From IMG/VR virus record IMGVR_UViG_2778261530_000010: a stretch of 30,951 nt of DNA. The stretch is one strand, 5' to 3'. The notes below the pieces were generated by a model, which did not search any database, was not told the DNA's origin, and saw only the letters and a list, made by a program, of their open reading frames with translations. The translations under genes and the position numbers were made by a program. Positions 27,489 through 28,501 of the stretch are shown here, one piece after another. Each line of letters starts with the position of its first letter. Within the stretch, counting starts at the first letter, position 1. The stretch comes from a virus. Taxonomy: Duplodnaviria; Heunggongvirae; Uroviricota; Caudoviricetes.

Positions 27489-27677
27489 ATGAGACTGTAT
27501 TTCAAAATAGTAATTTTACTGGCAATTATCGCATGCATTTACGGATTATTCGTTCCGTTCCTTATATCCATGAAGGATACGATAGCAGTTATTTCTGGCT
27601 TTGCACTGGCGTTTCTGACCCCGCCCTGCATTTATGCCATTTACAAGGGTCTTTCTTTCACTAAGGATAAAAGATGA
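27489..27677 (+). CDS. Small membrane protein (62 aa, 2 TM), apparently translationally coupled to the SPFH gene
   Basis: Two hydrophobic segments; stop overlaps the next ATG (ATGA). Confidence 0.5.
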   Translation: MRLYFKIVILLAIIACIYGLFVPFLISMKDTIAVISGFALAFLTPPCIYAIYKGLSFTKDKR

Positions 27678-28501
27678 AAAAAATTATTTTTGCTTTAGCC
27701 ATTGTTCTGCCGACTATTGGCCTTGTCGGTTGCGATCGCGTTGAACCAGGTAATGTTGGCATCAAGGTAAATAAACTAGGCGACGACAAAGGTGTCGGTG
27801 AGGTGGTCGGTGTTGGTCGCTACTGGACTGGCTGGAATACTGAAGTTTATATCTTCCCCACCTTCAAACAAATGAAGACCTACGATGAACCGTTCAGTTT
27901 CCAGATGAGTGACGGTACAACCATCGGCTATCACATCGGTGTGGCCTACAAAGTTGATCCATCCAAAGTTACCACGGTGTTTCAGACCTACCGCAAAGGC
28001 GTGGATGACATTACCGACACTGACCTGCGCCAGAAAATTGCCGACGCACTCAATCGGCTGGCCAGCAAAATGACCACTGACAAATTTATCGACGGCGGCA
28101 AGTCTGAACTACTGGATGCCGCACTTAAAGACATTCAGGAAGAGATGACACCCATCGGCATTCAGGTAATGAGCCTCTCTTATGTAGGTAAACCGGAATA
28201 CCCTCCAACCGTTATCGACAGCATTAACGCCAAAGTCACGGCAAACCAGAAAACCCTGCAGCGCGAGCAGGAAGTCAAGCAACGTGAAGCGGAGGCCAAC
28301 ATGCTACGTGCGGAAGCTGCCGGACAGGCTGATGCCATTCGAACAAAAGCCCAGGCAGAAGCCGATGCCATTCGTTTACGCGGCGAAGCTCTACGCCAGA
28401 ACCCAGGCGTCATGGAGCTGGAAGCCATCAACAAGTGGAACGGTACACTGCCGCAATACATGACCAGTGGTGCCAATACACCATTTATCCAGATTAAATA
28501 A
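27674..28501 (+). CDS. SPFH/band-7 (prohibitin/stomatin-like) lipoprotein
   Basis: Lipobox LVGC after a signal peptide; band-7-like core followed by an Ala/Gln/Glu-rich coiled-coil tail. Confidence 0.7.
   Translation: MKKIIFALAIVLPTIGLVGCDRVEPGNVGIKVNKLGDDKGVGEVVGVGRYWTGWNTEVYIFPTFKQMKTYDEPFSFQMSDGTTIGYHIGVAYKVDPSKVTTVFQTYRKGVDDITDTDLRQKIADALNRLASKMTTDKFIDGGKSELLDAALKDIQEEMTPIGIQVMSLSYVGKPEYPPTVIDSINAKVTANQKTLQREQEVKQREAEANMLRAEAAGQADAIRTKAQAEADAIRLRGEALRQNPGVMELEAINKWNGTLPQYMTSGANTPFIQIK

Follow-up and report, generated by a model that had tools for sequence, protein, structure and literature searches.

A translationally coupled SPFH lipoprotein and two-helix membrane protein as a widespread phage module, possibly an HflK/C-like periplasmic scaffold

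We analyzed a 30,951-nucleotide stretch of viral DNA (Caudoviricetes; IMG/VR record IMGVR_UViG_2778261530_000010), the whole of which is called "the window" below, with respect to two adjoining genes on its plus strand. One encodes a 62-residue, two-helix membrane protein (27489–27677; PHROG 1130), and the other a 275-residue precursor of an SPFH/Band 7 lipoprotein (27674–28501; PHROG 200). The two genes are co-transcribed and translationally coupled, they occur as a pair in most of the viral and bacterial loci that carry the larger gene, and in some lineages they are fused. Phage-plasmids, temperate phages, and strictly lytic phages all carry the pair, which spans several bacterial phyla. Tentatively, and with slightly less than even confidence, we favor the reading that the pair is an HflK/C-like, two-part scaffold that faces the periplasm from the inner membrane and is made during lytic growth. 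We regard it as a compact and very widespread phage membrane module that departs in its architecture from the known operons in which an SPFH gene has a partner.

The junction between the two genes (27663–27677, plus strand) consists of an AAGGA Shine-Dalgarno sequence (27663–27667) and an ATGA (27674–27677) in which the stop codon of the small gene overlaps the start codon of the large one. A preliminary description of this locus had proposed both open reading frames (ORFs) and their overlap; the coordinates and the strand were confirmed. A stop/start overlap was present in 11 of 15 cluster representatives (90% identity), and in nine of these it was exactly 4 nucleotides (nt) long.

How faithfully do the two genes travel together? 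A profile of the small protein (alignment A1), made from five free-standing examples and 20 N-terminal extensions, was compared with the 27,158 stop-to-stop ORFs of 270 loci collected around SPFH homologues. It matched 244 of them at E<1e-5, with two further weak matches. The partner was found directly upstream of, and on the same strand as, 238 of the 265 SPFH genes in viral loci; only six matches occurred elsewhere, each of them beside a truncated SPFH gene. When the SPFH proteins were clustered at 90% identity, the profile detected the partner in 34 of 50 clusters, and three more had a two-helix homologue that was recognized by eye. The remaining clusters hold relatives of below about 32% identity that have N-terminal helices of their own. 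A bacterial set with one genome per species had the partner at 72 of 80 loci, including those of Dyella, Sutterella, Leptospira, Saprospirales, and Bacteroidales (Bacteroidota). The conservation of the neighborhood, which had been put forward earlier as a check, was evident in viral and bacterial loci alike. Two apparent exceptions, Shigella flexneri SFBU1023 (locus L270) and Escherichia coli ECMA0423 (L271), have an IS1 element (InsA-like ORFs, at about 2230–3000 of the locus) between the two genes. As a result, the small protein ends in altered residues, and the two genes are no longer coupled.

Fusions of the two proteins strengthen the association. An exhaustive search of 1.84 billion representative proteins returned 3,008 relatives at E<1e-3. 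About 20 of the best 150 representatives at 50% identity (about 13%) were fused proteins of 320–390 residues, whose 55–100 extra N-terminal residues are the hairpin of the partner; a basic linker comes next, and then a hydrophobic segment with a lipobox cysteine still at its end. Seven more fusions were present among 110 profile hits, and three in bacterial genomes. Such proteins provide Rosetta-stone evidence that both components work together. Moreover, the order of elements in the fused chain, viz., a hairpin (in–out–in), a basic linker, a third helix (in–out), and the SPFH domain, is consistent with a periplasmic location of that domain. An AlphaFold2 model of one fused protein, P0002, has helices at residues 5–38, 43–68, and 74–89, followed by the SPFH domain, with a predicted local distance difference test (pLDDT) score of 87.6. 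This model was derived from alignment A5; a mixed alignment (A4) was discarded because it misplaced the small proteins onto the signal peptide. P0002 itself, the closest fused relative, was not counted as fusion evidence, as only one A in a run of seven (A7) separates it from the two-gene form. In the P1-like plasmid L351 (E. coli IncY, NZ_MK410117), the two genes (2784–3020 and 3001–3828) overlap by 20 nt across this run, and the loss of one A yields a 347-residue fused ORF as in P0002 (eight member sequences). The fusion argument is carried by the distant fusions with linkers of 20–50 residues, which a single-A difference does not explain.

The two genes have not diverged evenly. In a comparison of the window with phage P88 (L003) and the P1-like plasmids (L351), which also took in L270, the mature SPFH domains were 94–97% identical, whereas the partners were only 21–24% identical and the signal peptides 35–57% identical. 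A megablast match to P88 begins at window position 27722, given as just past the signal peptide. Near-identical SPFH domains next to divergent partners and signal peptides indicate that the partner plus the signal peptide behaves as an exchangeable cassette.

The 62-residue ORF is not a chance reading frame: it represents a conserved, dedicated family. Hydropathy analysis confirmed two hydrophobic segments, at about residues 5–26 and 32–52, and the C-terminus (KGLSFTKDKR) is basic. The positive-inside rule predicts an N-in/C-in hairpin, with the putative periplasmic turn at S27-M-K-D-T31 (27567–27581, plus strand). Three residues are nearly invariant in 155 distinct partner sequences: Pro23 (27555–27557; 100%), Ser27 (27567–27569; 99%), and Gly37 (27597–27599; 98%), all on the plus strand. 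The family signature, G-x3-P-x-L-[IV]-S-x-x-[SD]-[TD]-x-x-V-x-x-G, is centered on the predicted turn. The protein falls into PHROG 1130 (E=1.1e-23), which the partner homologue from an N4-species phage also matches; it had no Pfam match at E≤0.1 and no PADLOC match, and none of the sources names it. Against solved structures, the partner profile gave chance-level matches to hydrophobic helices only. SPFH proteins normally pair with NfeD-type proteins, and the earlier statement that this partner is of another type held up in the hidden Markov model (HMM) searches: none of 25 family members matched NfeD even at E≤1, and neither the window protein nor any of the 25 had a Pfam match. We thus rejected an assignment to NfeD; in any case, a protein of 62 residues with two helices has no room for the C-terminal oligonucleotide/oligosaccharide-binding (OB) fold domain of NfeD (PF01957). 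The same description had called the partner "minimal," a view that does not fit a conserved family that is dedicated to, and sometimes fused with, the SPFH protein.

The identity of the large protein was established by an HMM search, in which residues 22–208 matched Pfam Band_7 (PF01145) with E=6.1e-31 and 108.3 bits (cut-off, 23.6). The protein belongs to PHROG 200 (E=1e-114), and its homologue in phage phiP27, L05, is 98.9% identical in amino-acid sequence. The gene is under strong purifying selection, with a ratio of nonsynonymous to synonymous substitution rates (dN/dS) of 0.035–0.09. The protein starts with MKKIIFALAIVLPTIGLVGC, in which the lipobox (LVGC) is found, and continues with DR. 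The signal sequence, MKK-IIFALAIVLPTIG-LVGC, has a basic n-region, a hydrophobic core, and a lipobox conforming to [LVI][ASTVI][GAS]C. The putative signal peptide spans 27674–27733 (plus strand), with Cys20 at 27731–27733 and Asp as the +2 residue; the proposal of a lipoprotein signal was thus upheld by sequence prediction. Alignments A2 and A3 have Cys20 in at least 90% of their sequences; the mature protein would begin with this residue, in lipidated form. The predicted membrane attachment is at the N-terminus through this lipobox signal peptide, not through a helix or a hairpin. By the +2 rule for E. coli, Asp at this position predicts retention at the inner membrane.

AlphaFold2 was used to model the protein as a single chain from 101 homologues (mean pLDDT 83). 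The alpha/beta SPFH (Band 7) domain, delimited by Pfam, by AlphaFold2 (pLDDT 80–95), and by Foldseek, occupies residues of about 22–175 (27737–28198, plus strand; 20–175 in the model). It is followed in the model by a single, uninterrupted long helix rich in Ala, Glu, Gln, and Arg (65 residues, 178–242; 28205–28399, plus strand). This helix, the "coiled-coil tail" of the preliminary description, corresponds to the coiled-coil helix that forms the wall of SPFH cages. A short helix (residues 244–253) comes next, and the tail beyond it is modeled with low confidence. At residues 254–260 (28433–28453, plus strand), the motif K-W-N-G-T-L-P (KWxGxLP) coincides with conserved columns in A2 and A3, where Trp255 and Gly257 are invariant; we suggest that the motif closes or contacts the oligomer. 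In a Foldseek search of the PDB, nearly the whole chain aligned with cage-forming SPFH chains over 240–296 columns (probability 1.00). The top match was HflK/C (7vhq, E=2e-14), and others were to prohibitin, erlin, stomatin, flotillin, QmcA-YbbJ (8z5g, E=5e-8), and the shoulder of the major vault protein. The nearest solved protein by sequence was also HflK (E=2e-4). From the modeled fold and the conserved C-terminal motif, we infer that the protein assembles into a multimeric ring or cage.

HflK/HflC (7vhq, 7wi3, 9cz2), which in E. coli forms an SPFH cage around the protease FtsH, is therefore the best match among solved proteins in both fold and sequence. It too has an SPFH domain, then one long helix, and a closing segment at the C-terminus. 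The SPFH domain of HflK/C lies on the periplasmic side of the inner membrane, as we predict for that of the window protein; to our knowledge, HflK/C is the only SPFH pair of E. coli with a periplasm-facing domain, QmcA and YqiK being helix-anchored and facing the cytoplasm. The differences are equally clear. The window encodes a single SPFH protein where HflK and HflC form a pair; this protein has a lipobox instead of an N-terminal helix and is shorter (275 residues, compared to 334–419 for HflK and HflC); and a dedicated two-helix partner is encoded next to it. HflC and HflK were the best NCBIfam matches of the protein, but with scores far below the equivalog cut-offs (23.4 bits vs. 159.4 for TIGR01933, 25.5 bits vs. 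134.4 for TIGR01932). Given these scores and the different architecture, membership in either family was rejected.

The SPFH-NfeD operons (QmcA-YbbJ, 8z5g; YqiK-YqiJ; archaeal stomatin PH1511-PH1510) resemble the pair in that an SPFH gene is co-transcribed with a gene for a small membrane protein, whose helices would sit in the membrane patch under the scaffold. They differ in that the window's partner lacks the NfeD/OB fold and has its own signature, and in that the SPFH protein is predicted to be periplasmic and lipid-anchored. A third comparison is with the SPFH proteins of other phages (PHROG 200, phiP27 L05, Kayvirus MbpS, and the SPFH ORFs of the T4-like RB43, 44RR, and Aeh1). The window protein is a PHROG 200 member, whereas relatives of the MbpS type are about 25% identical and, unlike the window pair, have no detected partner. 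The pair is also comparable, in manner of working only, to the T4 Imm/Sp type of exclusion, which uses a small two-helix inner-membrane protein and a membrane-anchored periplasmic protein, both made early. There is no sequence relationship to these proteins, and no exclusion family appeared among the Pfam or PHROG matches of the pair.

Where the pair is found bears on what it may do. The window region is 99.9% identical to an E. coli UTAK-5 prophage that is integrated beside mlrA/yohO, and it is 95–96% identical to Stx2-converting phages and phage phiP27. The phiP27 and Stx2 prophages are the lambdoid carriers of the pair, which was matched in 388 of 5,426 complete E. coli genomes (about 7%). 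A tblastn search found SPFH relatives in 741 phage records, 658 of them below 60% identity; the genera included those of Staphylococcus, Pseudomonas, Erwinia, Klebsiella, and Caulobacter phages, and haloarchaeal viruses were also represented. VEc25 (species Enquatrovirus N4) carries the pair after RNAP2, a Hoc-like gene, and a PF17420 "GP17 superinfection exclusion" gene. The N4-like Erwinia phage S6 carries it as well; in SSE121, an rV5-like Salmonella phage that also has the pair, a small gene for a soluble protein separates its two members. Schitoviridae and Vequintavirinae are strictly virulent. The presence of the pair in such phages (VEc25, S6, SSE121) means that the module is not specific to lysogeny.

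Among temperate elements, the pair adjoins the integrase in Pseudomonas phage Ostro. In the P2-like phage P88 it lies between cox and the replication gene, a position within the early operon of P2-type phages. In P1-like IncY phage-plasmids it lies between dmt and ban; Op72ab/Pban, an intact C1 operator with the same sequence as in P1, is found 1.8 kb upstream of it. The plp/upl genes of P1 were considered as a possible match to this pair and rejected, as P1 plp is a 125-residue gene on the other strand. In all, the pair was found on 671 plasmids, of which 628 are non-mobilizable; the listed examples are mostly 95–114 kb in size.

Some observations concern individual carriers. In VEc25, the gene directly upstream of the pair (2407–2721 of locus L350) matches PF17420, "Superinfection exclusion gene product 17," at E=1e-55 and belongs to PHROG 1510. 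The intervening gene of SSE121 (2332–2496 of locus L084) encodes a 54-residue soluble protein (PHROG 13358) and overlaps both the two-helix and the SPFH genes; it may be a lineage-specific third component. On the 96-kb pMT1-type plasmid of Yersinia pestis CO92 (2297–3331 of locus L352), a gene for a 66-residue hypothetical protein is followed, after 3 nt, by an SPFH gene that is 79% identical to that of the window. These genes stand among recombinase and exonuclease genes of a phage-like backbone.

In the window, the pair is part of a single run of same-strand genes that extends from cI to Int, which we term the "int-ward operon." After CI come a gene for a protein with two helix-turn-helix (HTH) domains, several genes without an assignment, the pair, DUF5406, DUF4222, Xis (29346–29582), and Int (29638–30951). 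The pair is thus int-proximal, as had been stated, with Xis and Int downstream on the same plus strand. The window scan found no promoter or terminator next to the pair, and no terminator-like site on the plus strand from cI to the end of the window. A candidate repressor-controlled promoter region of the int-ward operon (25000–25079, plus strand) lies in the intergenic sequence after cI (24987–25083). It contains a promoter-like TTGCCA-17-TACCAT (25024–25052), just downstream of cI, flanked by a 12-nt operator-like element, CCAAAGTATCAA, which also occurs at 24270–24281 near the cI start. An inverted repeat (TGATACCTTAGTTAC/GTAACTGAGGTATCA) is present at 25035–25049 and 25065–25079, and a 20-nt element in the same intergenic sequence, AGAAACCAAAGTATCAAAAA, shares 90% identity with an element at 24267–24286, near the start of cI. 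The promoter-like site and its flanking elements resemble a repressor-controlled leftward promoter, although the scan as a whole gave chance-level counts, and the int-ward operon may have its operator and promoter among the elements of 24987–25083. The pair lies in repressor-controlled early operons in elements of the P2-like and P1-like types, which argues against a lysogen-specific defense role.

From these observations, a mechanism can be proposed in five steps. First, the two genes are co-transcribed and translationally coupled, as seen directly in the sequence. Second, the 62-residue protein would insert into the inner membrane as an N-in/C-in helical hairpin, and the 275-residue protein would be exported, lipidated on Cys20, and held at the outer face of that membrane. 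The location is suggested by the lipobox, by the Asp at +2, and by the relatives in which one polypeptide joins the hairpin to a third helix and an SPFH domain. Third, by analogy of fold with HflK/C, prohibitin, and QmcA, the SPFH domain, the 65-residue helix, and the KWxGxLP tail would build a multimeric ring or cage. Fourth, the hairpin would lie in the membrane patch fenced by this cage, its turn (P-x-L-[IV]-S-x-x-[DS]-[TD]) touching the scaffold in a place analogous to that of NfeD proteins with cellular SPFH proteins. The coupling, the pairing, the fusions, the fold, and the conserved residues are seen directly, whereas lipidation, location, oligomerization, and contact are deduced. We consider these four steps, taken jointly, to be about evenly balanced between right and wrong. 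Fifth, and speculatively, the fenced patch would control a host inner-membrane process to the benefit of the ongoing infection. The form of this last step that we favor, protection of the infected cell's inner membrane against the entry of a second genome or against premature permeabilization, is speculative, and we hold it with low confidence. As to purpose, we rank such protection first, followed by control of FtsH or another protease, membrane stabilization or lysis timing, defense of the lysogen, and, last, a lipoprotein that benefits the host.

Several points weigh against the scaffold reading. The +2 residue varies among relatives: it is Asp in the window, Glu in the rV5-like phages, Tyr in S6, and Ser in Pseudomonas phage Ostro, so some members of the family could reach the outer membrane. 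Partners that are only 21–24% identical beside SPFH domains of 94–97% identity imply that the contact between the two proteins rests on few residues, or that the partner's real contact is a different one. The P0002 fusion may be a homopolymer sequencing error or real slippage. With respect to lytic expression, the lack of a detected terminator after cI means that read-through from cI is possible in a lysogen, and the promoter scan as a whole returned 12 sites, compared with 12.6 expected in shuffled sequence; the terminator scan likewise did not differ from shuffled sequence, so the promoter-like site at 25024–25052 is no more than a lead. Finally, PM0222 (Pmorf0222) of Pasteurella multocida, a probable relative, was found in outer-membrane vesicles and in cultures of uninduced lysogens (PMC9872710).

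The best-surviving alternative is that the pair mimics HflK/C: it would bind or displace the host's HflK/C around FtsH or another membrane protease and thereby shift the turnover of CII, CIII, Xis, LpxC, or SecY, altering the lysis-lysogeny decision or the composition of the envelope. SPFH proteins are recurrent partners of membrane proteases, and the matches described above point the same way: no solved sequence is closer than HflK, NCBIfam gives HflC and HflK as its best matches, and 7vhq is the top fold match, with a periplasm-facing domain as predicted for the window protein. The SPFH gene also shares an operon with xis and int, and an HflK/C-type role has been suggested by the authors of other phage genomes (PMC4936722, PMC10269572). 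Yet the scores of 23–25 bits are far from the equivalog cut-offs of 134–159, there is only a single SPFH gene, and its product would be anchored by a lipid. The module is also equally conserved in virulent phages, which make no lysogeny decision. We find this explanation doubtful.

Somewhat less probable, in our estimation, is that the scaffold reinforces the inner membrane or organizes holins and secreted lysins, which would sustain a long productive period and a scheduled lysis. Cellular SPFH proteins are linked to envelope-stress tolerance, and several carriers (N4, rV5-like, and P1-like phages) combine a large burst with a latent period that is long or regulated. Lysis inhibition, in particular, is shown by N4 (PMC12642591), and MbpS of Kayvirus, a remote homologue, is encoded between the endolysin gene and the tgl lysin gene, where its authors suggested a role in secretion (PMC7150955). 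MbpS, however, shares only about 25% identity, no partner of it was detected, and the pair is far from the lysis cassette both in the window and in N4-like phages. Nor is it among the rapid-lysis loci of N4: the mutants affect the lysis genes gp61 and gp63, vRNAP gp50, and the terminal repeats, with single unrepeated changes in gp1, gp39, and gp53.

The preliminary description had suggested superinfection exclusion or another anti-phage defense, expressed in the lysogen, such that a constitutively made pair would block incoming phages at the envelope. The location that prompted this idea stands: the pair is int-proximal and surrounded by accessory genes. Lipoproteins and small proteins of the inner membrane are frequent among known exclusion proteins (T4 Imm and Sp, T5 Llp, TP-J34 Ltp), which lends the idea further plausibility, as do the lack of a terminator between cI and the module and the detection of the probable relative PM0222 in uninduced lysogens. 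The part that concerns expression in the lysogen was weakened. The same pair is present in obligately virulent phages; it lies in the repressor-controlled early operons of P2-like and P1-like elements; and no promoter of its own was found directly upstream. Furthermore, both proteins and five neighboring proteins had zero matches in PADLOC-DB at E≤0.1, and neither protein of the pair matched a Pfam exclusion family. We judge defense of the lysogen unlikely; an exclusion that acts during lytic growth is possible.

It is very unlikely that the lipoprotein acts in lysogenic conversion, at the surface or in vesicles, to the benefit of the bacterial host (virulence, immune stimulation) rather than of the phage. 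In favor of this, Pmorf0222, a prophage "HflK/C-like" protein of 25–35 kDa with Band_7 from residue 23, has the same layout as the window protein, is reported in outer-membrane vesicles, activates Toll-like receptor (TLR) 1/2, and attenuates virulence when deleted (PMC9872710), and the pair is on Y. pestis pMT1. Against it, the TLR work used recombinant protein, Pmorf0222 is a putative member of this family only, and conservation in virulent phages and environmental bacteria does not suit a pathogen-specific role.

Returning to the phage-built periplasmic scaffold, we also considered a bolder version, which we deem improbable as a whole. Here, the cage would trap or fence a specific host inner-membrane machine, either FtsH or the route of incoming DNA, and this strategy would be common to lambdoid, P2-like, P1-like, N4-like, and rV5-like phages. 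The pair could then be the N4-type superinfection-exclusion system, and, in the fused relatives, signal peptidase II would act at the internal lipobox to split the precursor into partner and lipoprotein. The N4 superinfection-exclusion system was described as uncharacterized in a 2025 preprint.

Recent work has shown that SPFH scaffolds such as HflK/C, prohibitin, stomatin, flotillin, and erlin form membrane cages; in bacteria, they usually pair with NfeD proteins. The present module would be a viral version of this arrangement, with a lipid anchor and a hairpin partner of 60–70 residues that bears a Pro/Ser/Gly signature and is sometimes fused to the scaffold. Its carriers include model elements and medically relevant ones: an N4-species phage, P1-like and P2-like phages, Stx2 phages, and Y. 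pestis pMT1. As the pair is small, self-contained, and present in tractable phages (N4, P1-like, P2-like, lambdoid), its function is directly testable. If it excludes superinfecting phages or controls FtsH, this would be a new use of the SPFH fold; otherwise, annotation would still be worthwhile for a protein family that is well defined but unnamed.

In the literature that we searched, we found no functional study of this family, and no description of the upstream two-helix partner, of the fusion variants, or of the conservation across lifestyles. The published proposals for phage SPFH genes, all speculative, are HflC-like control of lysogeny, help in secretion, and a role in adsorption or entry, and a 2026 report called the reason for their presence in phages unclear (PMC13239085).

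The remaining observations concern the surroundings of the pair and its annotation. The CI-type repressor (HTH and peptidase S24) is encoded at 24255–24986, and the gene that directly follows it on the same strand (25084–25818, plus strand) encodes a 244-residue protein with two separate HTH domains, one matching PHROG 4739 and the other the PHROG of a CII-like regulator, an unusual arrangement for an immunity region. A possible third small gene, an unannotated 35-residue ORF with one hydrophobic segment (MKSNRELNRVKLILILATVLTLTEIIILFIALSVG; 27358–27465, plus strand), ends 23 nt upstream of the 62-residue ORF. It is intact, with conservative substitutions only, in 45 of 52 related loci and was seen in the phiP27-like lineage only; it had no family match in Pfam or PHROG, and its membership in the module is uncertain. 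In the 40-nt gap between the SPFH stop codon and the DUF5406 start codon, a GC-rich hairpin (GCCCGGC-AGGCC-GCCGGGC; 28509–28528) has a predicted stability of −17 kcal/mol. As a terminator it was rejected: it has no T-run, and its stability does not differ significantly from that of shuffled sequences (z=−1.6). It may be an mRNA-stabilizing or processing element, or nothing.

As for annotation, the 99.9%-identical DNA of UTAK-5 bears the RefSeq label "SPFH domain-containing protein." The small gene goes unannotated in records of phiP27 and Stx2 phages, which label the large gene (L05) "putative serine protease" or "lipoprotein." The earlier phage descriptions (2006 to 2026) treat the SPFH gene alone, often under the former name, and "serine protease" is in fact a widespread label, being found in phiP27 (L05), Stx2 phage, and Erwinia phage records. 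No protease domain was detected in the SPFH protein. The label may descend from "membrane protease subunit," an old name of HflK/C.

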